Of a DNA stretch of 11,066 nucleotides, positions 1-11,066 are shown in pieces (position 1 is the first letter of the stretch; each line of letters begins with the position of its first letter). Made by a program: the position numbers and the translations under genes. The notes beneath the pieces are model-generated. The model ran no database searches. It was not told the DNA's origin and saw nothing but the letters and a program-made list of their open reading frames with translations. Origin of the DNA: a virus (taxonomy: Duplodnaviria; Heunggongvirae; Uroviricota; Caudoviricetes); the IMG/VR virus record IMGVR_UViG_2693429582_000021, positions 1 to 11,066 of that record. One strand, written 5' to 3'.

Positions 1-34
1 GTATTCGCCGCCCGTATTCGTCAGGAGGTGCGCC

Positions 35-265
35 ATGTGCAATAAAAACACGCCGGACGCAGCAGGCGAAGCATTGAAAGTACTGATACATGCGCTTGTG
101 GATATAAATTGCATGGTAGAGATCATGGAGAGGAAATCACAGTCGGAGTACGACAAAAGAAAATTTAAAACAATAAAAATAATTACCAAAAACTCACTGA
201 CAAAAGCTACAGACATCCTCAATGAGGACACTAAAAGAATCAGGGAGAAACTGTGTGATGCATAA
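35..265 (+). CDS. hypothetical small protein (76 aa), first gene of plus-strand operon
   Basis: ORF with strong Shine-Dalgarno (AGGAGG at about 23-28) 6-8 nt upstream of the ATG at 35; no recognisable family from the translation. Confidence 0.5.
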   Translation: MCNKNTPDAAGEALKVLIHALVDINCMVEIMERKSQSEYDKRKFKTIKIITKNSLTKATDILNEDTKRIREKLCDA

Positions 266-485
266 AATACCTTTTGATGTTCTTATTCATTCTGAGAATG
301 CATTAATCCGCGCAAAGGAAATGGAGGCATTATTACTTAAGTTAATGGAAGTGCCGGAAAATGGCGATGAATCATATCCCATGATGTTTTCTGCCGTGCA
401 CACATTATTAACGCCAGTAATTAACGAATTAAATACGGTGATGGCAATTCACGAGAATAATAAAGCGCATCACACCGGAGAATAA
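258..485 (+). CDS. hypothetical small protein (about 75 aa from the ATG at 258; the ORF is open from 222)
   Basis: In-frame ATG at 258 preceded by GGGAGA about 9 nt upstream; overlaps the stop of the previous ORF (263-265), consistent with coupling. Function unknown. Confidence 0.4.
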   Translation: MHKIPFDVLIHSENALIRAKEMEALLLKLMEVPENGDESYPMMFSAVHTLLTPVINELNTVMAIHENNKAHHTGE

Positions 486-490
486 AAACC

Positions 491-790
491 ATGAAACAGA
501 AAAATTCTGGCTTTACTGCCAGCGGCCTCCCTCGGCCTGAAATCCGCCCCGGCGATATTTTCCGGGATAACTACGGCGGCACAGTAACGATTAAACACGT
601 GGCGGGACGGTGCGTTACTTACCGCCGTGATGGGTACGGCTATGACTGCGTGATGCCTGTTTATCAGTTCCGGCGTGATTTTTCCCTGGTACAGACTGCG
701 CCGCGTAACCAGCCCACCAGCAAAGAGAAGGCACGGGTAAATATTCAGGCCATAAGAAAAATGCTTAACGGATTCAGGGGTAAAAAATGA
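491..790 (+). CDS. hypothetical protein (99 aa), translationally coupled to the downstream primase-like gene
   Basis: GGAGA about 10 nt upstream of the ATG at 491; its stop overlaps the start of the next gene as ATGA (787-790). No family recognised. Confidence 0.5.
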   Translation: MKQKNSGFTASGLPRPEIRPGDIFRDNYGGTVTIKHVAGRCVTYRRDGYGYDCVMPVYQFRRDFSLVQTAPRNQPTSKEKARVNIQAIRKMLNGFRGKK

Positions 791-2919
791 AACTGGCACC
801 GAACGTAAAACTATTGCCGAAAGATAAAGGTGAGGAAGCAGTAATTTTTGTGGGGGATGACGCATACAGCCACGCAGAACATTACAGGCAGGGTGGAGAA
901 GCCGGAAAGCGCGGCGACAAAATACCGCCCGTTTATATCGGACGGCGTGACCTGGGTAATCTGGAAAACCTGCGTATTGTGGATGATGGCCGGTTACGCG
1001 TCATGGTCAGACGTGCCGGAAAGCTGGATGGCAAACAGGCGCTACAGATTGAAACCCTGCTCGCAGTAGCTGGTGTTAAGGAAGTCAGTTTTTGTGACGA
1101 GAACGGCGAACTACTGGAGGACTGGACACCACAGCTTGCCCGACTGAAAGACGAATACGAGCGTGGGGAAAGTCTGGTGTTGCCCTTAAAGAAAAAAATC
1201 ACAGAAAACCATGGCGATGATGAATTAAAGCCCCGCGTTGAAAGCCGCGCCGATGGTGTTTTCTGGGTAACGCCCAAAGTGGATAAGCAGTCAGGCGAAA
1301 TTATCCGGCCTGAGACGTGGTTATGTTCCCCGCTTGAACTACTGGGAACGGGAACAATCGGCAAAGAGCATTACCGCGTGATGCGCTGGAAAAAATTAGC
1401 AAATCATGAAGTCATCACAATGGCGATCCCGTGTGGTGGCATTGGCGACCGTGACGGCTGGCGGTTGCTGAAAGACCACGGTTTGAACGTGACAACCAAC
1501 GGTAAATACAGGGCTGTCCTGGCTGACTGGATGCAGTTAAGCGGAAGCCATGAGGAATGGCAGTTAAGCACAACAACGGGCTGGCATTTTGGCGCGTACA
1601 TCATGCCGGATGGTTCGGTCATTGGTGATTGCGAAAAGCCAGTCCTGTTTACCGGAAAAACGGCTGCCGTTAATGGTTATTCCGTGACAGGAACGGCGGA
1701 GGGCTGGCGCGACAGTGTGGCGCGACTGGCTGGTGGTAATCCGTCCATGATGCTGGGAGTGGCGGTATCGTTATCCGCACCATTAATCGGGCTGGTGGGC
1801 GCTGACGGCTTCGGGGTACATCTTTTCGAACAGTCATCGGCAGGGAAAACCACCACACAGAACATAGCATCAAGTTTATGGGGAGAGCCGGACGCGCAAC
1901 GGCTGACCTGGTACGGAACGGCGTTAGGTATCGCCAACGAGGCAGAGGCACACAACGACGGACTGTTACCACTGGATGAAATAGGCCAGGCCGGAAACGC
2001 GCGGGAGGTGTCCACATCGGCTTATACGCTGTTTAACGGTTCCGGTAAATTGCAGGGGGCGAAGGACGGCGGCAACAGGGAGATAAAACACTGGCGAACG
2101 GTGGCAATCAGTACCGGAGAAATGGACGTTGAGACATTCCTCAAAACGGAGGGGATAAAAGTCAAGGCGGGGCAGCTTGTCCGCCTGCTTAACGTGCCAA
2201 TGGAAAAAGCCACACAATTTCACGAATACAGCACCGGAAAGGCGCACGCAGACGCGTTAAAGGATGCCTGGACAGCAAATCACGGGGCGGCGGGGCGTGA
2301 GTGGGTTAAATGGCTGGCAGACCACCAGCAGGAGGCAAAGGATACAGTAAGGGAATGCCGTGAACGGTGGCGCAACCTGATACCGGAGAGCTACGGCGAG
2401 CAGGTCCACCGCGTGGGTGAGCGTTTCGCCATACTGGAGGCCGCACTTGTGCTTTCCGGTCATGTGACTGGCTGGGATGAGCAGGAATGCCGCGATGCCA
2501 TTCAGCATAATTTTAATGCCTGGGTGAAGGAGTTCGGCACGGGCAACAGGGAACACAGGCAGATTATTGAACAGGCTGAGGCGTTTCTTGCGGCCTATGG
2601 CCTGAGCAGGTTCGCCCCTGTCAATTATGACCCTGCCAGCCTGCCGATTTCAGAACTGTACGGCTACAGGGAAAGCGACGGGCGTTATGACGAGCCTGTT
2701 TTGTTTTACGTGCTGCCGGAGCCGTTTAGCTCACATGTGGCGAAGGGATTTAACAAGGATGCCGTAGCAAAGACCCTTCATGAAGCCGGAATGCTGAGAA
2801 AACCAGCCAGCGGGCGAGGATGGCAAATCAGGACACCACGGCTAAAACACCTGAAAGGGGCGCGGCTAAGAGTGTATGGCCTTTTGCTGACGCAGGACTA
2901 CGATGCTGAAAATGATTAA
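787..2919 (+). CDS. replication protein of integrative element/satellite: primase/helicase-like P-loop NTPase (DUF927/SF3-helicase-like architecture)
   Basis: 710-aa uninterrupted ORF; Walker A-like motif SSAGKTT (about nt 1840-1860) and Walker B-like hhhhDE (LLPLDEIG, about nt 1960-1985) in the middle of the protein; large N-terminal domain; immediately followed by an iteron array. Family assignment from pattern recognition, not a search. Confidence 0.8.
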   Translation: MKLAPNVKLLPKDKGEEAVIFVGDDAYSHAEHYRQGGEAGKRGDKIPPVYIGRRDLGNLENLRIVDDGRLRVMVRRAGKLDGKQALQIETLLAVAGVKEVSFCDENGELLEDWTPQLARLKDEYERGESLVLPLKKKITENHGDDELKPRVESRADGVFWVTPKVDKQSGEIIRPETWLCSPLELLGTGTIGKEHYRVMRWKKLANHEVITMAIPCGGIGDRDGWRLLKDHGLNVTTNGKYRAVLADWMQLSGSHEEWQLSTTTGWHFGAYIMPDGSVIGDCEKPVLFTGKTAAVNGYSVTGTAEGWRDSVARLAGGNPSMMLGVAVSLSAPLIGLVGADGFGVHLFEQSSAGKTTTQNIASSLWGEPDAQRLTWYGTALGIANEAEAHNDGLLPLDEIGQAGNAREVSTSAYTLFNGSGKLQGAKDGGNREIKHWRTVAISTGEMDVETFLKTEGIKVKAGQLVRLLNVPMEKATQFHEYSTGKAHADALKDAWTANHGAAGREWVKWLADHQQEAKDTVRECRERWRNLIPESYGEQVHRVGERFAILEAALVLSGHVTGWDEQECRDAIQHNFNAWVKEFGTGNREHRQIIEQAEAFLAAYGLSRFAPVNYDPASLPISELYGYRESDGRYDEPVLFYVLPEPFSSHVAKGFNKDAVAKTLHEAGMLRKPASGRGWQIRTPRLKHLKGARLRVYGLLLTQDYDAEND

Positions 2920-2944
2920 TCTCGCGTGTAGGCGGTAACAATAT

Positions 2945-3272
2945 GTTGTCCCAGTCGTCCCAGAAAGCAATAAGCAAGCGTAACATATTGAATTTTATAG
3001 ATTTCACTTGCAAAAAGTGGGACAACAGCGGGACAACATTCAGGCATTTTGGGACAACATTGCGGCATTTTGGGACGACACGACACGTATTTTTTACCGT
3101 GCCGAAGGGTGGGACAACGCAAAACCCCTCATGTCGTCCCAAAATCGGTAAATGTCGTCCCACTTTGCGGAGTGTGTTTTTAATAAAATCAATAAGTTAA
3201 CATTAAGTGGGACAACCGGGACAACTGGGACGACGTGTTTTGTATATATATACGAAAAATCGAGATCTGAAC
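2945..3272. repeat. iteron array plus AT-rich tract: putative replication origin
   Basis: About 12 copies of the 8-mer GGGAC(A/G)AC in both orientations (plus copies at 3019, 3030, 3051, 3072, 3111, 3209, 3218, 3227; inverted copies GT(T/C)GTCCC at 2945, 2954, 3133, 3154). Three copies sit in a 21-bp tandem unit CATT..GGCATTTTGGGACAAC (3030/3051/3072). An AT-rich stretch TGTATATATATACGAAAAAT (3241-3260) follows. Position directly 3' of the replication gene matches rep-ori organisation in satellites and plasmids. Confidence 0.7.
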
Positions 3273-3273
3273 T

Positions 3274-3516
3274 ATGAAGTCAAACCGCAAACAACCACAC
3301 TACCGCGCCATTGACCTTACAGAGCACTGGCTGAGAGTGGCGATAAAAATCATCGACCGCAACACGGGGGAAGGATACGCGAAAGCACACCCCGAACTGA
3401 TAAGCGCATTCATGGCAACGGCGGCAGCAAACTTTGCCACGCTGACAGAACGGGAGATTGCCGAATCGGAACAGGTGACAACCATCAACATTAAAACCGG
3501 AGAGCAGACAGCATGA
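3274..3516 (+). CDS. hypothetical protein (80 aa)
   Basis: ORF beginning just after the AT-rich tract; its stop overlaps the next start (ATGA at 3513-3516). No family recognised. Confidence 0.5.
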   Translation: MKSNRKQPHYRAIDLTEHWLRVAIKIIDRNTGEGYAKAHPELISAFMATAAANFATLTEREIAESEQVTTINIKTGEQTA

Positions 3517-3935
3517 CAGCACAGATAGCGGCTTACGGGCGGCTGGTGGCTGACCCGCAGTTAAAGACCACCAGCAAAGGGACACAAATGGCGATGGCGA
3601 GTATGGCGGTTCCCCTGCCGTGCAGCCAGGCCGATGACGGAACGGCGACGATGTGGTTATCCGTCCTGGCGTTTGGCAGACAGGCCGACGCACTGGCCAG
3701 ACACCACAAAGGCGAACTGGTGAGCGTGGCGGGTAACATGCAGGTAAGCCAGTGGACAGGCCAGAACGGCGAAACGCGGCAGGGCTGGCAGGTTATCGCA
3801 GACAGCGTAATCAGTGCGCGAACGGCGCGACCGGGCGGCAAAAAAGGTCAACAGGGCCAGGCTACTGACGCGCTGAACAGGGCAAAACAACAGGCGGGTA
3901 ATGATGATCCGTACGAAGACAACATACCGTTTTAA
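3513..3935 (+). CDS. single-stranded DNA-binding (SSB-like, OB-fold) protein
   Basis: 140-aa translation shows an SSB-like pattern: N-terminal GRLVADPQLK resembling E. coli SSB GNLGQDPEVR, conserved W...FG...A...KG..V...G......W....G..R spacing, and a Gly/Gln-rich tail ending in acidic residues plus DNIPF (SSB tails end D-D-D-I-P-F). Confidence 0.7.
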   Translation: MTAQIAAYGRLVADPQLKTTSKGTQMAMASMAVPLPCSQADDGTATMWLSVLAFGRQADALARHHKGELVSVAGNMQVSQWTGQNGETRQGWQVIADSVISARTARPGGKKGQQGQATDALNRAKQQAGNDDPYEDNIPF

Positions 3936-3971
3936 TTCACAACAGCGAACAGAGTTATTACAGGGGAAAGC

Positions 3972-4496
3972 ATGACAAAGCTGACCATTAACCGAAAACC
4001 GAAAGGCATTTACGGCACGCTGCAGAAAACGACGCAGGCGATACAGCAGCAGGATAAAACCACATCGGCGCATAAAGTGATACCCGGCAATCAGAACGCA
4101 CAGCAGAAGCCCACAGGGGCGACACCGTGGCGGCATATGACCAAACGCCAGCGCAAAAACCGCAGACGCGTTAACCGCCTTACTGAGATGTGGCCTGACT
4201 TATTCAGCCGGGAAGCGCCAAAACCGCTGAAGGTGGGGATATTCGACGACCTGATGCAGGATATCGCCGTCAGGGGGCTGGCATTCGGGCCGGGGGCATT
4301 ACGTGCGACGCTGGCATCTTATGCGCAGTCTCCACGCTATTACCGCGCCTTAATGGCTGGTGGGGTACGCTACGACCTGAAAGGCCAGCCATGTGGCGAG
4401 GTGACATCACAGGAACAACAGGACGCAGAAACGCGGCTGATGATGCTGAATGAGAAGCGTAAACGCCGGACAGCAAAGGAGAAGACAGGCGCATGA
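3972..4496 (+). CDS. FinO/ProQ-family RNA-binding protein (RNA chaperone)
   Basis: 174-aa ORF; the C-terminal two thirds align with the F-plasmid FinO core (WP.LF....P.L..GI.D.L..D.A.R...., Y...M.AG..RYD..G); basic N- and C-terminal tails typical of the family. SD-like GGGGAAA upstream of the ATG. Confidence 0.8.
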   Translation: MTKLTINRKPKGIYGTLQKTTQAIQQQDKTTSAHKVIPGNQNAQQKPTGATPWRHMTKRQRKNRRRVNRLTEMWPDLFSREAPKPLKVGIFDDLMQDIAVRGLAFGPGALRATLASYAQSPRYYRALMAGGVRYDLKGQPCGEVTSQEQQDAETRLMMLNEKRKRRTAKEKTGA

Positions 4497-4780
4497 TTCG
4501 TGACAGCAAAGCGGAAGAACTGGAGGCTAAAGGGCTGTACCGAAGAGCGACGGCGCGGTGGGCTGAGGTTATGCAACTGGTGAACACCGATAAGGAGCGC
4601 GAACAGGCGGCAAAGCGTCGCGCGGAATGTATCCGTAAGGCAGCACGCCCACCCGTTATGGCGGATAACTTCGGAGCGCTGAAAGAGGCTGTAAACCGCA
4701 CTCATGCGGTGATGGGGATGGAAGACGCGGGTAAATCCGTCTGGCGGAACTATCCAAAGCAGCCGGGCAATAATCAGTGA
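4493..4780 (+). CDS. small regulator, possibly PerC/Pch-family transcriptional activator
   Basis: 95-aa ORF coupled to the FinO-like gene (ATGA overlap at 4493-4496). N-terminus MIRDSKAEELEAKGLYRRATARWAEV resembles my recollection of PerC/Pch N-termini; the family call is tentative. Confidence 0.4.
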   Translation: MIRDSKAEELEAKGLYRRATARWAEVMQLVNTDKEREQAAKRRAECIRKAARPPVMADNFGALKEAVNRTHAVMGMEDAGKSVWRNYPKQPGNNQ

Positions 4781-4862
4781 TGCCGGATATTATCCTGAAA
4801 AATGACCATCACTCCCGTGGGCGGATAACATAAAATCCTGCATATACGCAGATACACAGACG

Positions 4863-4887
4863 AAGCCGGAACACTCCGGCTTTTTTT
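4863..4887 (+). terminator. rho-independent terminator ending the plus-strand replication/regulatory operon
   Basis: Stem AAGCCGGA / TCCGGCTT with loop ACAC, followed by a run of seven T (4881-4887). Confidence 0.7.
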
Positions 4888-4965
4888 ACGGGTCCTTCCA
4901 GAGGGGTGGCCTTACCGCGAGGCGACGGACGCGCGGAAATCGCCAAATTTTCGCATTTTTATCGG
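4888..4965 (+). other. cos-like site A (diverged cosQ-cosN-cosB-like sequence)
   Basis: ACGGGTCCTTCCAG (4888-4901) matches the lambda cosQ-region motif ACGGGTCCTTTCCGG. About 32 nt downstream, GAGGCGACGGACG CGCGGAAATCGCC AAATTTTCGCATTTTTATCGG parallels lambda GGGCGGCGACCT CGCGGGTTTTCGC TATTTATGAAAATTTTCCGG, roughly 65-70% identity by eye. Confidence 0.45.
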
Positions 4966-5233
4966 TCATCACCACCAGCGCAATTTATTGATAATGAAGG
5001 TTAAAAAAATTCCTGGTGTCGAAAACGCCTGTTTTTTGTTCACCACTGAATCATGCCGCATCACGATAACCCACAAGGCTGGTGGTGATGCGTTATGGTC
5101 CCTACGTTGCCATCCCCCTGACCTCATGGCATTATCCGGCGTGAACGAGCGGTTATTCTCCGTACTCTTAATCGTTGTTCATGGTTATTTGCTTTGTGGT
5201 AGCTTACATTTCCTGATGGTTATTATCCTTCCG

Positions 5234-5257
5234 CCCCGTAATCACGGGGTTTTTTTT
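5234..5257 (+). terminator. rho-independent terminator inside the non-coding region
   Basis: Perfect hairpin CCCCGT-AATC-ACGGGG followed by eight T (5250-5257). No credible upstream CDS, so it may terminate a small RNA; the 128-aa ORF 4988..5374 reads straight through it. Confidence 0.6.
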
Positions 5258-5295
5258 GTCTGCGATTTGCCGTTCTCCGTTGCGCTGGTGGTAAC

Positions 5296-5331
5296 GTCAC
5301 GATGTGTCACGACATGTCACCATCACGTCAC
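5296..5331. promoter_or_regulatory. phased array of four GTCAC motifs at about 10-bp spacing (putative protein-binding site)
   Basis: GTCAC at 5296, 5306, 5316 and 5327 within aacGTCACgatgtGTCACgacatGTCACcatcacGTCACg; one helical turn apart, which would place all sites on the same face of the DNA. Confidence 0.4.
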
Positions 5332-5720
5332 GCTGATGGCGAAAGTCAGGGTTAACCAGTACCGGAACGGGTAGCCCGATGTACTGTTACCGTTCTGCTG
5401 GCTGGTGGAGTAATTGATAACGGTTATCATCAATGGGAGGGGTGGATCAAATCCCTGTAGTCCTGGCTGTCAGGGACCGCCGCCCAACCCTTCTTCACAT
5501 CGCCGCAGGTTCGAAAACTTTTTTTTGGGAAGGTGCGCACAGACTTGATAGATAAAACCTATCAGACAAAACCACGCCAACCCCGCGCCATTGCTGGCAT
5601 CGTTAAAAAAACTCACTCCACCAGCAGGCTAAAAAACCGTGATTTTTCCGGTTTTATGGGCTGAAAAGGGGCTCCCTAAAAAACACCTCTTACACTGCCG
5701 GACAGGGGCGGTGACTTTTC

Positions 5721-5850
5721 ACGGGTCCTTTCCGGGGATCTGAAACACCACGGGGCGGCAGACGCGCAGATTTTCACTATTTATAAAAATTTTTCAGGGA
5801 AAAAGCATGTCGGTACTTCTTGCATGTAACATTATGTTTTTATTGCAACT
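5721..5850 (+). other. cos: cos site B: lambda-like cosQ, cosN and cosB upstream of terS
   Basis: 5721-5735 ACGGGTCCTTTCCGG is identical to the lambda cosQ-region motif. 5753-5764 GGGCGGCAGACG aligns with lambda cosN GGGCGGCGACCT. The following CGCAGATTTTCAC TATTTATAAAAATTTTTCAGGG ... CTTCTTGCATGTAAC ATTATGTTTTTATT parallels lambda cosB. The cosN-to-terS-start distance (189 nt) is essentially that of lambda cosN to Nu1 (about 190 nt). Confidence 0.75.
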
Positions 5851-5941
5851 AACTATCATAAACATACGACACCATAACGCCGGAAAATCCCGTTTTTCAG
5901 GCGTTTCATGTCGGAGGTGGTTTTTGATGAGGATTTGATAA

Positions 5942-6526
5942 ATGAATGTTAACAAAAAGAGACTGGCGGAGATTTTCGGTGTTGATCCGCGCACAATTGA
6001 GCGCTGGCAGATGCAAGGGCTTCCCCATGTATCTGGTGGCGGAAAAGGTGTGGAGGTGACTTTCGACTCTGCACAGGTGATCGAATGGTATGTACAGAGG
6101 GAGAAGGAGATCGAAAACGAAAAACTCCGCAGGGAGCTTGATGATTTACGTGCTGCTGGTGAATCAGATTTACAGCCAGGCACAACAGAGTACGAACGCT
6201 ACCGTCTCACCAAAGCACAGGCGGACGGGCAGGAACTGAAGAACGCCAGAGAGACAGGGGAAGTTATAGATACTGAGTTCGTACTCTGTGCGCTTCGTGG
6301 ACTGGCGAGTCAGATTTCTTCGATCATGGATAGTTTGCCGCTCACAATGCAAAGGCAGTTCCCCGGGATGACTCCGGCAATGCTCGATGGCCTGAGGAAG
6401 GAAACAGCACGAGCCTGTAATGCGTGCGCTAAAACTGCCGATAACCTACCCCGCATTCTGGAAGACTATCTGATGGAAACAACCGGAAACGTGCCGGAGA
6501 AGTTACGGCAACAGAAAGGTGAGTGA
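5942..6526 (+). CDS. terS: terminase small subunit, lambda Nu1 family (orphan; no terL follows)
   Basis: 194-aa translation closely parallels lambda Nu1 over the N-terminal wHTH and ATP-binding region: [49 protein letters not shown]...LR.A.E.DLQPGT.EYER.RLT.AQAD.QELKNAR. The C-terminal 40 aa diverge. Nothing resembling a large terminase follows on either strand. Confidence 0.9.
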
Positions 6527-6553
6527 CAACCGCGCAATTATTGAACAAAACTG

Positions 6554-6616
6554 AGAAAGGATCTGATAACGTTATTTTTGGCCCAAAATGACCACTGTCA
6601 GATCCTTTCTTTTTCT
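6554..6616. terminator. large palindrome downstream of terS, possible bidirectional terminator or protein-binding site
   Basis: Perfect 13-bp inverted repeat AGAAAGGATCTGA (6554-6566) / TCAGATCCTTTCT (6598-6610) with an inner ATTTTTGG-C-CCAAAAT hairpin, followed by TTTTTC on the plus strand. Confidence 0.45.
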
Positions 6617-6619
6617 GAT

Positions 6620-6753
6620 GATTTTACGATTAAACAATGAGTTACAGAGAAGAAGAACGGATCTGACTTTTCCCGAAAAATTTTCATAAACAGTTAAGAA
6701 TTGCGCGTATCCGTACCCCCGGCGCTCAAGATTCTGGAAAGGACCCGTGACAC
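6620..6753 (-). other. cos-like site C (inverted orientation relative to cos B)
   Basis: Minus strand reads TCACGGGTCCTTTCCAGAATCTTGAGCGCC GGGGGTACGGAT ACGCGCAATTCTTAAC TGTTTATGAAAATTTTTCGGG AAAAG TCAGATCCGTTCTTCTCTGTAACTCATTG. This parallels lambda cosQ / cosN / R3 / TATTTATGAAAATTTTCCGG / CGTTTCCGTTCTTCTTCGTCATAACTTAATG. The cosQ-to-cosN spacing is about 4 nt shorter than in site B. Confidence 0.65.
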
Positions 6754-6760
6754 CTGACCA

Positions 6761-6783
6761 ACAAAAAAGCCCCCGAAGGGGGC
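6761..6783 (-). terminator. rho-independent terminator of the minus-strand toxin-immunity operon
   Basis: Hairpin GCCCCC-GAA-GGGGGC (6768-6782) with an A-run at 6762-6767 on plus, giving a T-run after the stem on minus, immediately 3' of the immunity gene stop at 6788. Confidence 0.7.
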
Positions 6784-6787
6784 TAAA

Positions 6788-7036
6788 TTACGCATCTTTA
6801 AAACTGGATTTGCCATTAGCTAAACGCCAGGTTTTAACTTCTTGTACGATGGCTTCCGGACTATCGTCTTTTCCGTTCTCTGGATAAAAAATTAGATCAG
6901 AGCCTGATGGATGTTCAGAGAGGCGCCTGAATTCTCTGACTAACTGCTCGCTTTCTTTTTCTGTTCCTTCTGCATTACATATTTTTCGAACAAGATCTAA
7001 GAATTCATTTTCAGTATAGTCGTTTATTGTTTTCAC
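6788..7036 (-). CDS. colicin/pyocin DNase immunity protein, Im7/Im9 family
   Basis: 82-aa translation [24 protein letters not shown]....[40 protein letters not shown] matches Im9 (…SDYTEAEFLQLVTTICNA….[40 protein letters not shown]). GTG start 1 nt after the toxin stop, with AGGGGA SD inside the toxin 3' end. Confidence 0.85.
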
Positions 7037-7037
7037 G

Positions 7038-8729
7038 TTATTTTCCCCTGTGAATTTCTATATGCCGCTTTGGTGTTGTGATACCCATATTATCAACGTT
7101 ATAAACTTCGCCCCCCTCACTTATAGGTTTAATATGGTGTATTTCGTAACGTTCCCTCCCACCAACTCGCTCCACTTCCCTTGTGAATGGTGAACGTCCT
7201 TTGCGAATGTTCGTGAGGTTGTGTGCTCTGAACTGTCTTGACAAATCAGCATCGTTTGCCACTTCTGCCCAAAATGCCTCCCTGAATCGATCAAAATTCG
7301 CAAATGTTCGCCCACGCATCCGCTCCGCAATCTGGCTGGGTACTGGTGCACCATTTCCCTTATCGGCATCCACCAGCCACGCCCCGCTAATTTTTTGTCC
7401 TTTCCCTGTTACCTGCCCGGCGTTATTCCTGATGTAAATATAAATCGGCGGTATATCCGGGAATGGCAGGATCAGAATGTAATCCGCAAAATCCTTTTCT
7501 TCCGGGGCCGGGCTGGTTGTGGCGTGTAATCCCGTGTCATCCGGTAACGGGTCCACCATCACCGGATTCGGCAGCACTGGCGGGTACTGATTTCCCGTGT
7601 GGTACGGTACATCAATCCCCGGATTATCCGGCGTCCAGATGAGTGTGATACGCGGGTCTTCCTCCGTGGTGAATGTGTACGCCTTTCGTCTGTCGTCCCA
7701 CTCCATCCGGCGCACGCGCACCCTGTCCTGTCCCGGTGGCGTATGCCAGCCATGCGGAACGGGGTTCCCCCGGCTGTTCGTCTCCCAGGTAAAGCGAACA
7801 CGGGTAGGCACTTCCCTAGCCTGTTCGGCCCTCATACGGTCGATAAAATCCTGTTCCCCGTCATTCAGCCGACCGGGCATCATCCCTATCAGAAACGCCG
7901 CCAGTGGCAGCCCCGCAACCCCGGTCGCAGTTTCACCCACGACGGCCCACGTTCCCCGGATGGCAAAATTCCCCGCCACCGGACGCAGAACGCTCGCCCC
8001 GGCAATTGCCGCTCTGGCCCGTTGTGCGCGCTCCGCTTCTTCAACCGCACGCTGATAATCCATTTCCTCGTGATGGCCGTTCCACCATTTCCACAGTGCA
8101 CTGCGTTTCTTCGGCTTCGGGATATCCTCCGGCGCAACCAGTTTTTTCTTTTTGACCGCCTGTGCACGCTGCGGGGTTTCCGTGTCCGTCACCGGGTCAG
8201 TCTGCGGAACGGCCTGATAAATCCCCATCGGTGCAAAGTTGGTATGCGGCTCCCGCTGGTCGCCCGCGTCGTTGCATCCCTCACCGCGCAGACAGGATTT
8301 TGCAAACACCCGGTTACGTTCCCGTTCTTCCTCCCGGCGTTTTTCTTCAGCTTCCCGTTCTGCCTTGCGTTGTGCTATCAGTTCCGCCTGTTTTTTCTGT
8401 GCAATTTCTGCCGGCGACGGCCCCGCCCCCATCCACTGACCGAGCGGGGCAATAATCCGGTTTGAACCTTCAGGGCAGCCACAGTGAACAACACAGCCAT
8501 CAACGGCAATAGGAATATCTATCACCTTAAAACGGGCTTCTCCTTCTGCCACCATGCCGAGCTTTCCGCACGCCGGGCAGGGGGTGGTTTTGTCCCCCTT
8601 ACGAATAAGACCGTAACCACAGACGTTGTAGTTAGGGACAGGAAGGGAAGTAATCAGCCATGCGCCGGTGGTGGTTTTGTCACAGGAAAGCGCCATTCCC
8701 CTGCCGTGTATATCCGGCCTGTATGTCAT
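7038..8729 (-). CDS. polymorphic nuclease toxin: Cys-rich N-terminal domain, charged coiled-coil linker, pyocin-S-like region, C-terminal colicin E9-type HNH DNase
   Basis: The 563-aa C-terminus ([49 protein letters not shown]…[42 protein letters not shown]) matches the colicin E9/E7 DNase domain including the HNH motif. N-terminal 100 aa carry six Cys in CxxC and CxCGC clusters (possible Zn-binding, PAAR-like GD.T..C..CG pattern). Residues about 115-145 form a Lys/Glu/Arg-rich linker. No signal peptide. Resembles chromosomal bacteriocin-like genotoxins such as Usp, unverified. Confidence 0.9.
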
Positions 8730-9217
8730 GGCTTACACTCCGGCACTACCAGAAAATCCGCTGGCATACTTTCGCCTTCACGACAACAAAGTAATGCTGT
8801 TCGCTGCGGCGTACTGATAATTTCATCCCCGTTATCCAGTTGGCTGCCAACCAGCGCATACCCTTTCCCGTGACAGCTAAACGCACTGCCGGAACCACTG
8901 ACAATACGGGCCGTTGTGCCGTCCTGATAAGTCACCTCATCCCCGACCATCGCCATTTCAGCCATCTCTCCGGTGCTGTCAGCGACTTCGCAGCCGGAAC
9001 TGGCGGAAGACACCACCCCGCCATTACGGGTAAGGCTACCGGTAATGGCATGTCGCCAGATAGCCACTATCGGATGTTGACGGCAAAATTCCTCCTGCTC
9101 CCTGATTATCGCCAGCGCATCATCGGACATATCAGCAAGCGCTTCTTCTGTAAAAGGGGATTTATCCAGTTCTGCCAGTACATCGGCGGTCAGTTCGTTG
9201 GTATATTGCTTCATCAT
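8726..9217 (-). CDS. hypothetical 163-aa protein upstream of the toxin, possibly PAAR-like or adaptor
   Basis: Start MM at 9217 with AGGAAA SD-like upstream; stop overlaps the toxin start (ATGA coupling at 8726-8729). Acidic N-terminal 50 aa, then a Gly/Ser-rich region with repeated VGD and GS motifs (MAMVGDEVTYQDG, IVSGSGSAFSCHGKGYALVGS) reminiscent of PAAR repeats, and a Cys-containing C-terminus. Confidence 0.6.
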   Translation of the reverse strand: MMKQYTNELTADVLAELDKSPFTEEALADMSDDALAIIREQEEFCRQHPIVAIWRHAITGSLTRNGGVVSSASSGCEVADSTGEMAEMAMVGDEVTYQDGTTARIVSGSGSAFSCHGKGYALVGSQLDNGDEIISTPQRTALLCCREGESMPADFLVVPECKP

Positions 9218-10050
9218 GTTTCTGTTTTTCCTGTGGTTAACAATCGACCAGAATCATAATGAAAGGGAATGCAAAAAAATTGATGGATATCAAAATGAAA
9301 AATAAAATCATCCCGGTAAAACAGGATATCTACCCCACCAGCATCCCTGGATTTTCAGATAGTTGCTTTTAGCCTCTGAACAACATCTGCTGGTGGCTGA
9401 TAATTACAATAATTCCTGCCCCCTGGCGTTTCTGAGCATGTTTACCGCGAATTTTGCGCAAAACACCTTAACAATTCTTAAATTTTAAAAACACTTCAGT
9501 GATAAGCATCACCGCTCCCGCTCACATTTGACACAGGCAACTCCATCTGGCAGGTGAAAATCAAATTTATTTATATATTTCAATTGATTGTAAACTGGTC
9601 TAATGACAGGGGAGAAAAAAGACTGTACAGGTGAAAACAGAAATAATTTTTAATTATCAATGAATTATCACACATGCTGCCGCCGCCATGAAAATGCAAA
9701 AACTAGCCGTTTTCTGCGCATCCGTCGCCCCGCGGTAAGGGGCACCCCACCGGGAGGACCCACGACGATCAGGGCGTTTTATCAACGTCGTGTGTTATGC
9801 CGGATTAACTGCGTACGTAATACGTGCACATCCCGAACAGGAGCAGCCAGAATCAGCGCCGCTGACGTTGTTTTGTGGTTATCCCCCTGTCATGAATCAT
9901 CGCAATGGTTTTATGTGTTCTGCGTTGCGCTGGTGGGTTATTCCACCATTGGTGGGAAACATGGCACCACATCCACCAGCTTAAACGCGCTTCACCTTCC
10001 CGGCATCAGTCGCCACAATTACGGCATTGCTTTCCATCACCACGGAGGCC

Positions 10051-10341
10051 ATGACCATGACCGAAGCCGAAATGCTCAAAATGATTCGCCGTGCTGCCGG
10101 AATCAGCCAGGCAGCAGGCAAACAGGAGGCCACGCAACCGGACAGCGTGATAGCCGAAAATTACGCGCGTGTGGTGGCTGATGTGATGCGCCGTGACGGT
10201 ATCGAGCTTAACGGCGTGGATATGCGCGATATACGAACCAGAGTTCTCGAGTTGCTGGCATGTCGTCGCCGTTCTCAGCAACGGAGGGAGAGCGCGAAAA
10301 ATACTTACCAGTGGAAGAAGCCGGAGCGGTTACGGCGGTAG
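10051..10341 (+). CDS. hypothetical protein (about 95 aa; the ORF is open from a TTG at 10027)
   Basis: GGAGG at 10044-10048 with ATG at 10051 and 10057; basic C-terminus; no family recognised. Confidence 0.45.
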   Translation: MTMTEAEMLKMIRRAAGISQAAGKQEATQPDSVIAENYARVVADVMRRDGIELNGVDMRDIRTRVLELLACRRRSQQRRESAKNTYQWKKPERLRR

Positions 10342-10577
10342 TGTCAGCATGATTTGCGAGGTAGTAATACTGACTCGCAACAGAGTGACCGATAGCCACC
10401 CTGTTCAACCGTTCCGGCTGGCTGGGCAGATTTTGCGCGGGTCTTATAGTCCCTCACAACAGAGTAAATAAAATTGACTTGGTTACAGAGTAACCAAACC
10501 GGAGATTCCCGGTTTGCTCAAAAAATGACAATGAGTTACGCCCCCTAACCTAAGTAATCCTTACATTCACTGCATCA

Positions 10578-10592
10578 TCACCATGATGGTGA
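10578..10592. promoter_or_regulatory. 7-1-7 palindrome TCACCAT-G-ATGGTGA (candidate operator)
   Basis: Perfect 7-bp inverted arms in an intergenic region. Confidence 0.3.
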
Positions 10593-10706
10593 CGCAGCCC
10601 ACCAGCAACCATAACGATTTCCGTTACAGTTGATGTGCTTTTTTGCTGGTAAGGCGTAACCCGTTGATTGTTCCAGAATCCCCCATTGGGGGAAGCTGAA
10701 AAACTC

Positions 10707-10731
10707 ACCCACCAGATTCTGAATGGTGAAA
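10707..10731. promoter_or_regulatory. 9-7-9 palindrome CTGAATGGT-gaaaatg-ACCATTCAG (hairpin or operator)
   Basis: Perfect 9-bp inverted repeat; shares the ATGGTGA core with the palindrome at 10578; a second hairpin CCCGAAA…TTTCGGG follows at about 10747-10773. Confidence 0.3.
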
Positions 10732-10976
10732 ATGACCATTCAGCTTCATGTGTCCATTTTCCCGAAACAGGAAAACCCGTTTTCGGGAGAAGGTGCGATC
10801 ATGTTCGTCATACCTGTTCCGTTGAAACGGTAATACCCCATTCCGGCGTAGCTGGTGGGTATGATGCCGATGCCGGGATCTCGGTATCGGTTTATCCGTG
10901 ATCATCCACCAGCTTGATAACGGATAACAGGGAGTCATAACGGTTAAAATTGTATACTTTTGCAGCAAACATTTTT

Positions 10977-11021
10977 AGCTACACGTTAAGCTACACGATT
11001 TTTGAGTTGAAATTTTCAACT
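10977..11021. promoter_or_regulatory. direct repeat AGCTACACG x2 followed by palindrome AGTTGAAA/TTTCAACT (candidate regulatory site for a gene beyond the window)
   Basis: AGCTACACGTTAAGCTACACG, then GAGTTGAAATTTTCAACTTCAAC; AT-rich context at the window edge. Confidence 0.3.
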
Positions 11022-11066
11022 TCAACTAAATCAATTAGTTATTGGCATGTTTTGAATACTCTCGTG

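Follow-up and report, generated by a model that had tools for sequence, protein, structure and literature searches.

Phage-inducible chromosomal islands (PICIs) spread virulence and defence genes among E. coli strains, the cargo in the present case being genes of an interbacterial toxin, and the packaging module decides which phages can move an island. The small terminase gene terS is listed as a core component in the PICI model of SatelliteFinder (de Sousa et al., bioRxiv 10.1101/2022.09.14.508007). Islands with a TerS were described among the PICIs of E. coli in 2018, with neither a mechanism nor a helper, and resident prophages did not mobilise those of IHE3034 and 18098 (Fillol-Salom et al., ISME J, PMC6092414). 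In SaPIs, the satellite TerS works together with the phage TerL (Ubeda et al., 2007, as reviewed in PMC6739421). For cos-type E. coli islands, Rpp is the only mechanism worked out in the literature examined (Fillol-Salom et al., 2019, Mol Cell, PMC6739421; Murialdo and Feiss, 2022, PMC9026076): EcCICFT073 has two functional cos sites and is packaged as multimers into full-size lambda and phi80 heads (PMC6092414, PMC6739421), and its transfer is wholly lost when the helper terS is deleted (PMC6092414). A summary of satellite packaging from 2022 names cos mimicry, pac-type TerS and Rpp, and a cos-type satellite TerS is absent from its list; in the literature searched, a limited collection, we found no paper characterising such a protein.

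Here, we analysed a stretch of 11,066 nucleotides from a Caudoviricetes record (IMG/VR IMGVR_UViG_2693429582_000021, positions 1 to 11,066; called the window for simplicity), in which a cos site and a full-length Nu1-family terS are followed by a second, inverted cos site. TerS-bearing E. coli PICIs are a known kind of element, and the window is a rare cassette variant of this kind, not a new element class. New here are the inverted second cos (cos2), a satellite-specific C-terminal half of TerS, a recombination breakpoint between phage and satellite, and a variable cosN.

Gene content and chromosomal setting of the island

The genes around the packaging cassette and the candidate right attachment site are as follows.

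491-790, plus strand: DUF4222 protein (Pfam)
787-2919, plus strand: DUF927 primase/helicase (Pfam; PHROG 1139 DNA primase, E = 3.5e-164)
2943-3234: origin iterons TGGGACRAC, at least 10 copies in both orientations
3274-3516, plus strand: small ORF in the replication module (491-3935)
3513-3935, plus strand: SSB (Pfam)
3972-4496, plus strand: ProQ/FinO-family protein (PF04352, E = 6e-24)
4493-4780, plus strand: PerC-family transcriptional activator (PF06069, E = 1e-35)
6788-7036, minus strand: Im-type immunity protein, cargo (Pfam)
7038-8729, minus strand: PAAR/S-type-pyocin/HNH-DNase toxin, cargo (Pfam)
8726-9217, minus strand: PAAR protein, cargo (Pfam)
10972-10987, plus strand: candidate attR TTTTTAGCTACACGTT, present in E. 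coli C5 as a perfect direct repeat of 16 bp

The replication module that the preliminary description had assigned to this DNA was recovered, with primase/helicase, iteron origin and SSB. The ProQ/FinO and PerC genes are the final backbone genes ahead of the packaging cassette, and the accessory cargo on the minus strand (6788-9217) matches the NCBIfam model of the VPA1263 T6SS effector DNase at E = 4.8e-60, which is under the cut-off of that model. No RNA family was found in the window with Rfam, and promoter and terminator scans of the window stayed at background level.

The integrase lies outside the window itself and was seen in near-identical copies. One such copy, the IMG/VR contig L015 (13,677 bp), matches window positions 1-10341 at 99.87% identity, and its only extra genes upstream are a tyrosine integrase (413 aa) and an AlpA regulator (contig positions 1768-1974; PF05930 Phage_AlpA, E = 4.5e-8). 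In E. coli C5 (L001), an island 98% identical to the window except for a swapped replicase is located between tRNA-Pro/yejM and yejO, with the integrase next to tRNA-Pro and housekeeping genes on both sides. One copy of the 16-bp repeat is located there at 11721, 120 nt past tRNA-Pro and immediately ahead of the integrase; the second, at 25610, is the counterpart of window position 10972, and the two repeats bound ~13.9 kb. The gene order of the near-identical copies is integrase-AlpA-primase-ori-SSB-ProQ-PerC-cos-terS-cargo between 16-bp repeats. A check of the flanks for an integrase, attachment repeats and terL, portal or capsid genes had been set beforehand; it yielded the integrase in these two copies, the repeats in E. 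coli C5, and no terL, portal or capsid gene, in E. coli C5 within 15 kb on each side of the island.

Absence of terL and of structural genes from the window, as proposed in the preliminary description, was borne out by tblastn, Pfam and PHROG searches. With lambda gpA, phage 21 gp2 and PhiR5_1 TerL as queries, every true phage locus gave a match to a gpA-type TerL, and neither the window nor any of the island loci did. When all plausible ORFs were scanned with Pfam and PHROG, no portal, capsid, tail or lysis gene emerged, so terS is the sole 'head and packaging' gene in an island of 13.7-13.9 kb. The PICI features found comprise an integrase with an att site, AlpA after int, a primase with an iteron origin, and the lack of structural and lysis genes, and the island length lies within the ~10-15 kb expected of Gram-negative PICIs (PMC6092414; de Sousa et al.). 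Since the flanks are devoid of terL and structural genes and the 194-aa ORF clearly belongs to the Nu1 family, the definition of a Gram-negative PICI fits. These data support assignment of the element to the Gram-negative PICIs of E. coli, with a lambdoid helper supplying TerL and capsids; the dependence on such a helper, already suggested in the preliminary description, agrees with this anatomy, from which the function is deduced.

Two other satellite classes were considered. cf-PICIs are defined by their own capsid, protease, portal, connectors, HNH, TerS and TerL (bioRxiv 10.1101/2022.09.08.507074); only TerS of this set is present, and a capsid-forming PICI was excluded. A P4-like satellite was rejected by gene content. 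Pfam and PHROG scans of the window found no Ppi-like or capsid-remodelling gene.

The nearest relatives of the cos and terS outside islands are those of lambdoid phages (70% protein identity for PhiR5_1, 61% for phage 21), as would be expected if the locus were the decayed left end of a lambdoid prophage in which cos and terS persist as fossils. The flank analysis refuted this reading, which we regard as highly improbable: an integrase/AlpA/primase/ori backbone lies between repeats ~13.9 kb apart with chromosomal genes immediately beyond, late and lysis genes of phages other than terS are absent, the terS ORF is intact and under purifying selection, and matches to this backbone occur in 1,954 of the 5,426 complete E. 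coli genomes.

Two convergent cos sites around terS

The packaging cassette contains the following elements. The coordinates of the cos1 sub-sites were transferred by alignment from the annotated phage 21 record OL657228.

5723-5729, plus strand: cos1 cosQ-like core GGGTCCT, inside the conserved block CACGGGTCCTTTCCGG (5720-5735)
5753-5764, plus strand: cos1 cosN-equivalent GGGCGGCAGACG, matched by alignment with bases 1-12 of the cosN annotated in phage 21 and lambda
5803-5920, plus strand: cos1 cosB, with R3 (5803-5818), I1, the IHF site (5827-5839), R2, inverted (5861-5876), and R1 (5904-5920)
5942-6526, plus strand: terS, Nu1-family small terminase, 194 aa (Pfam PF07471, PHROG 57 and PDB matches)
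6551-6746, minus strand: cos2, an inverted complete cos, aligned with the cos of L044 and L075
6740-6746, minus strand: cos2 cosQ
6706-6717, minus strand: cos2 cosN-equivalent GGTACGGATACG
6651-6666, minus strand: cos2 R3
6632-6644, minus strand: cos2 I1
6595-6610, minus strand: cos2 R2
6551-6566, minus strand: cos2 R1

A cos with a Nu1-like terS had been proposed for positions 5721-6526, and these coordinates proved right: 5721 is the start of the cosQ block, all cos sub-sites are present and the gene product matches PF07471 at E = 1.9e-68. The 220 bp upstream of terS align with the cos of lambda, phage 21 and PhiR5_1, column by column for lambda and phage 21. The order of the cos1 sub-sites is that of lambda and phage 21, with a complete cosB (R3-I1-R2-R1) directly upstream of terS. 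cosQ is conserved across every island and phage aligned, and the distance of 30 nt from the cosQ core to cosN position 1 is the same as in phage PhiR5_1 and in PICI cos sites. The R core of cos1 is of the phage-21 type, CATGTCGG, and occurs twice (at 5806 and 5907); the R sites differ at 0-2 positions between sister islands. Between cosN and R3, cos1 has 1 bp more than phage 21; in lambda, this distance is critical (PMC9026076).

The cosN GGGCGGCGACCT is common to lambda, phage 21, PhiR5_1 and EcCIIHE3034. In cos1, for which the nick positions are predicted by alignment, GGGCGGCAGACG differs from it at 4 of 12 positions (8, 9, 10 and 12), with two further differences from phage 21 and lambda at the flanking positions 16 and 18. 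Sister islands whose TerS is 92-96% identical carry GGGACGGGTACG or GGTACGTGTACG as cosN, and phage L044 shares GGTACGTGTACG. The 30-nt cosN segment diverges by 40-43% between sister islands compared with 16-18% in the remaining cosB (Fisher p 0.004-0.014). Because its divergence exceeds that of the other parts of cosB, cosN looks like a separately exchanged piece. No phage carrying the cos1 variant was found among the matches listed from the phage database, IMG/VR, and the genome and metagenome scans; among these matches the variant occurred in satellite-sized contigs only. The exact-pattern scans of genome and metagenome contigs returned chance matches in high-GC organisms and, among the matches listed, three further islands with a real cos context (L203, L229 and L244). 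Scans with 16-mers of other cosN variants also gave mostly chance matches, the real ones being the 44-kb phage L044 and the island L029. Since the nuclease of TerL has little sequence specificity of its own and TerS on cosB sets its position (PMC9026076), the variant cosN may still be cut.

A cosN-like string at 2284 within the primase gene, conserved in sister islands, was also considered. It lacks any cos context and was for this reason taken as coding sequence.

The preliminary description had called the cos standalone. This holds for the lack of terL, portal and capsid genes, but the cos is not alone: cos2 lies on the minus strand at 6551-6746, directly after terS and just outside the interval first described. 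Over its whole length it can be aligned with the cos sites of the viral contig L044 (44 kb) and of the PICI L075. Its R core is AGATCC and its cosB is unlike that of cos1. No terS is found downstream of cos2 and no cognate TerS in the island, and the phage L044 encodes its own terS (recognition helix RTITGWQ) together with a gpA-type terL. Through cos2, the island can probably be packaged by AGATCC-group helpers that use the TerS they encode themselves. The convergent cos pair around terS was also found in seven other loci (L001, L002, L009, L015, L017, L203 and L229), and the cassette (5065-6747) occurs in both orientations relative to the backbone (L002 versus the window; L072 versus L071).

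Modular architecture and conservation of TerS

The profile search of the 194-aa protein identified a clear member of the Nu1 family. The match to Pfam Phage_Nu1 (PF07471) reached 229.6 bits (cut-off 30) and covered profile positions 1-162 of 164, and PHROG 57 'terminase small subunit' was matched at E = 2.9e-64. Residues 1-98 align without gaps to the lambda Nu1 chain 6hn7_B (E = 2e-39) and residues 1-67 to 1j9i_A (E = 6e-24), and the N-terminus is predicted to form a winged helix-turn-helix DNA-binding domain like the solved domain of Nu1. By tblastn, the protein is 70% identical to PhiR5_1 TerS, 61% to phage 21 gp1 and 53% to lambda Nu1. In each of these three phages terS overlaps terL; the island terS is not followed by an overlapping gpA-type terL, and the inverted cos2 is found there instead. 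Given the lack of a TerL match and the adjacent cos2, the gene is assigned to the Nu1 family by homology, outside a phage terminase operon. No relative of TerS was detected when species-representative genomes were scanned with the protein as guide, which likely reflects the inclusion of one genome per species.

Residues 17-23 of the recognition helix (RTIERWQ) are identical to those of phage 21 gp1. Across satellites and phages, the helix co-varies with the R core in the combinations RTIERWQ with CATGTCGG, RTIS/TxWQ with AGATCC, and RTIQNWQ with CGTTTCC. With a DNA-binding domain and R sites that both resemble those of phage 21, the island would not be set apart from a 21-type helper by TerS alone, and since the island DNA-binding domain and cosB are 21-like, the TerS of such a helper could itself use cos1.

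We compared TerS with that of P0034, P0033, P0040 and EcCIIHE3034 after checking the genomic contexts of these PICI comparators: P0034 and P0033 stem from islands at the phoQ site with gpE-like capsid and gpD-like genes, and P0040 from a capsid-gene-free island at cspD/clpS. Residues 1-104 (DNA-binding domain and linker) are 61-86% identical to phage TerS, as close as to other PICI TerS, whereas residues 105-181 show 66-81% identity to PICI TerS versus 22-67% to phage TerS (22-39% for lambda and phage 21), and the C-terminal half is 13 aa longer than in these two. The TerS of the PICIs compared share a tail of 13-14 residues that is absent from phage TerS. The proposal that the C-terminal ~40 aa diverge from lambda was thereby confirmed, residues 141-181 being 22% identical to lambda Nu1 compared with 61-76% for residues 1-104. 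In EcCIIHE3034 the DNA-binding domain is only 24% identical to that of the island TerS, compared with 66-81% for the C-terminal ~90 residues. Judged by these identities, the C-terminal half is a PICI-specific module. A search with the C-terminal 90 residues retrieved only E. coli TerS fragments and revealed no further diversity of attached N-termini.

The extreme C-terminus contains the motif LPxxLxDY, a putative TerL-docking motif that is also found in the TerS of lambda, PhiR5_1 and P0046. In this motif the island protein resembles lambda, PhiR5_1 and P0046 and is unlike phage 21, which points to helpers with a TerL N-terminus of the former types.

The PICI L071 and L073, a bona fide phage with the gene order terS-GpA-gpW-portal, share ~100% DNA identity from cosN to about position +340 of terS (codon ~113), where identity drops abruptly to ~50%. 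Such alignments indicate that cos and the N-terminal half of TerS are exchanged with real phages, the L071/L073 pair being the sharpest evidence.

The close match of the N-terminal 104 residues to phage TerS (61-86%) and the ~100% DNA identity of a sister PICI with a real phage up to codon ~113 also bear on a route resembling that of Rpp, which binds TerS via exactly this region and has a TerS-like DNA-binding domain (PMC6739421, PMC9026076). Here, the island TerS would heterodimerise with the helper TerS through its N-terminal domain and long helix and retarget it to the island cos; packaging of the helper would be blocked and the contact to TerL would come from the helper TerS. A weak match to RppC (6hlk_A, E = 0.0065), limited to the HTH, is in line with such a role. 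However, Rpp proteins have 135-154 aa and no TerL-binding tail, while the island protein is full length, follows the Nu1 profile to position 162 of 164 and retains the C-terminal LPxxLxDY motif; moreover, with the same DNA specificity as its partner, a heterodimer would leave targeting unchanged. We consider this route quite unlikely.

A DUF1441 protein encoded at the terS position in sister islands (e.g. STEC383) was also considered as an Rpp. It showed no similarity to RppC in the PDB search (E ≤ 10), and a DUF1441 protein directly precedes TerL in the real phage L013; the equation with Rpp was dropped.

The exact cos1-terS module (at least ~85% nucleotide identity) is complete in 24 of the 5,426 complete E. 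coli genomes. In 9 further genomes, i.e. 9 of 33 module carriers, codons ~6-175 of terS are cleanly gone and both cos sites are kept, which argues that terS is not indispensable for persistence of the island. DNA homologous to the 3' half of the PICI-type terS is present in ~600-800 of the 5,426 genomes, including Nissle 1917 and O157:H7 strains. Between sister islands, dN/dS of terS is 0.12-0.27 in both halves, and the gene is under purifying selection.

The terS-deleted derivatives with both cos sites (9/33 module-bearing genomes) would be explained by cos mimicry, in which the TerS-TerL of a helper acts on cos1 (21-type) or cos2 (AGATCC-type) and the island terS is dispensable for packaging, mainly interfering by competition for TerL or cosB or being in the process of loss. 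Cos mimicry is documented in P4, SaPIbov5 and PLE, and it would also account for cos1 R sites and a recognition helix that are those of phage 21 and for a cos2 that matches a real phage cos and has no cognate TerS in the island. Yet both halves of terS are under purifying selection, the PICI-specific C-terminal half is kept despite unrelated DNA-binding domains and cos sites, which would be odd for a passenger gene, and the PICI-type terS 3' half is retained in ~600 of 5,426 complete E. coli genomes. As an account of the island terS, cos mimicry is in our view unlikely.

Proposed packaging route and comparison with described systems

We favour, with a probability of about 0.7, a route in which the island TerS binds its own cos1 and docks the helper TerL via its C-terminal half, whereby concatemers are cut and ~3 copies are packaged per head. 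Induction by a lambdoid helper would lead to excision of the island and to its replication from its own origin as concatemers. The winged HTH of TerS would bind the 21-type R sites of cos1, with IHF bending the DNA at I1, and the PICI-specific C-terminal half would recruit the gpA-type TerL of the helper, upon which cosN would be nicked. About three island copies (3 x 13.9 kb) would then enter a helper-made head of lambda size; the capacity of the lambda head is roughly 38-51 kb. The inverted cos2, which lacks a terS and has the R sites of another phage group, would permit cos mimicry with the helper TerS of that group, and the island may in addition interfere with its helper.

Several observations count against this route: no phage with GGGCGGCAGACG occurs among the matches listed, terS-less derivatives exist, the cosN-R3 distance is 1 bp longer, the TerS islands of IHE3034 and 18098 were unmobilised by resident prophages (PMC6092414), and the 21-like DNA-binding domain and cosB are usable by the TerS of a 21-type helper.

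Roughly one in ten complete E. coli genomes contains a TerS-bearing island. The picture that emerges is modular, with a constant C-terminal half, an exchangeable cos/DNA-binding half, two convergent cos sites of differing specificity and a variable cosN; it leads to testable predictions of helper range and provides hints for engineering cos-type satellites as delivery vehicles. Tentatively, cos-type PICIs with a full Nu1-type TerS might use a third packaging strategy, apart from Rpp and plain cos mimicry, in which a C-terminal half of the satellite lineage, serving self-assembly and TerL docking, stays constant, the cos/DNA-binding half is swapped time and again with the lambdoid phages at hand, and an orphan cos and a 'private' cosN widen or partition the helper range.

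Compared with SaPI TerS, the island shares the principle that a satellite retains the DNA-recognition subunit alone and borrows TerL and capsids from the helper. SaPI TerS, however, acts in pac headful packaging, belongs to another TerS family and is helped by Ppi and small-capsid remodelling, whereas the island is cos-type. With lambda gpNu1 and phage 21 gp1 it has in common the protein family, the domain order, and the order and spacing of the cos sub-sites, and with phage 21 gp1 also recognition-helix residues 17-23 and the R core; it differs from both phages, in which terL overlaps terS, by its divergent C-terminal half, cosN and cosN-R3 spacing.

EcCICFT073 belongs to the same island family, is likewise cos-type with a lambdoid helper, has two cos sites per island, and carries a cos directly upstream of a winged-HTH gene for packaging specificity. 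Its Rpp, in contrast, is a protein of 135-154 aa without a TerL-binding tail that works only in a heterocomplex with the helper TerS, and its cosB consists of one R3-like site without I1, R2 and R1 (PMC9026076), whereas the island has a complete cosB and a full-length Nu1 homologue. EcCIIHE3034 has an integrase, AlpA, Icd, DUF4222, primase and SSB backbone like that of the island, lacks terL, has its cos-terS close to the right end, and encodes a Nu1-family TerS (E = 2.3e-23) with the same tail and a lambda-type cosQ-cosN directly upstream. It differs in its unrelated N-terminal DNA-binding domain (24% identity), another cosB and the canonical lambda cosN GGGCGGCGACCT, and it encodes a gpE-like capsid and a gpD-like decoration protein, both missing from the island in the window.

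A second cos site and variation in cosN

Directly adjoining the 3' side of terS, which encodes the Nu1-family small terminase, a complete second cos site (cos2) lies convergent with the first (cos1). Its cosN-equivalent reads GGTACGGATACG and its R sites are of the AGATCC type. A terS of its own is absent for cos2, which matches in sequence the cos of the 44-kb phage contig L044. The features of the window considered here are as follows.

2272-2300, cosN-like string ACGGGGCGGCGGGGCG, inside the primase gene
2943-3234, both orientations, dense array of TGGGACRAC iterons
6551-6746, minus strand, cos2, with cosQ, cosN-equivalent, R3, I1, R2 and R1
6788-9217, minus strand, toxin module carried as island cargo: PAAR protein, toxin and Im-type immunity protein

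Within the otherwise conserved cos sites of the islands, variability was highest in cosN (window 5746-5775; around 3133 in L017 and 8548 in L018, two related island loci; around 8762 in L044). Sister islands carried the forms GGGCGGCAGACG, GGGACGGGTACG and GGTACGTGTACG, the last of which is common to sister island(s) and phage L044. The cosN variant of cos1 in the window was found in no phage among the matches listed from the phage database, IMG/VR and the genome and metagenome scans. The string ACGGGGCGGCGGGGCG in the primase gene is kept in sister islands and has no cosQ or cosB context around it; it is probably mere coding sequence.

Exchange and rearrangement of the terS cassette

Between cosN and nucleotide ~+340 of terS (codon ~113), the PICI L071 (8740-9585) and the bona fide lambdoid phage L073 (4740-5549) have DNA that is ~100% identical; past that point identity is only ~50%. 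The drop marks a sharp recombination breakpoint midway through terS, with the satellite L071 keeping a C-terminal half of its own. Nearly the whole of terS (window 5959-6464) is cleanly deleted in E. coli PSS-15 (L022, 5684-6527) and in eight other genomes, with both cos1 and cos2 kept; islands with this terS-deleted cassette also encode a DUF1441 protein. The cos1-terS-cos2 cassette was seen in both orientations relative to the island backbone (L002 14144-15826; L072 9001-9585, both related islands). In the related island L007, ~440 bp from upstream of cos1 are present again, inverted, past terS, a duplication that could mediate the cassette flip.

In sister islands the terS position of the window is taken by a DUF1441-family protein (L002 13150-13659). 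DUF1441 proteins seem to form a further family of phage TerS, because in the 45-kb phage contig L013 (1111-3841) such a protein is placed between a cos, with cosN GGGCGGCGGACG, and a gpA-like TerL. Similarity of the DUF1441 protein to RppC, the packaging-specificity protein of EcCICFT073-type PICIs, was undetectable in a PDB search, even at E <= 10.

Replication module, boundaries and cargo

The iteron array (at least 10 copies) lies directly 3' of the primase/helicase gene and is the presumed replication origin of the island. The closest genome, E. coli C5, carries the same island with a different replicase (window 787-2919 versus L001 15787-18166), a RepA-type helicase and a hypothetical protein standing where the window has the DUF927 primase. 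The two copies of the island, otherwise 98% identical, differ by this swapped replication module. The C5 island is flanked by an exact 16-bp direct repeat, TTTTTAGCTACACGTT (L001 11721-11736 and 25610-25625; window copy 10972-10987), which supplies candidates for attL and attR; on the left side it lies 120 nt downstream of tRNA-Pro, outside the tRNA gene.

The cargo toxin is a 563-aa PAAR/S-type-pyocin/HNH-DNase protein, whose C-terminal part resembles the VPA1263 T6SS DNase effector, with a score under that model's cut-off. The module has the appearance of an effector and immunity pair of a T6SS, borne by a phage satellite.
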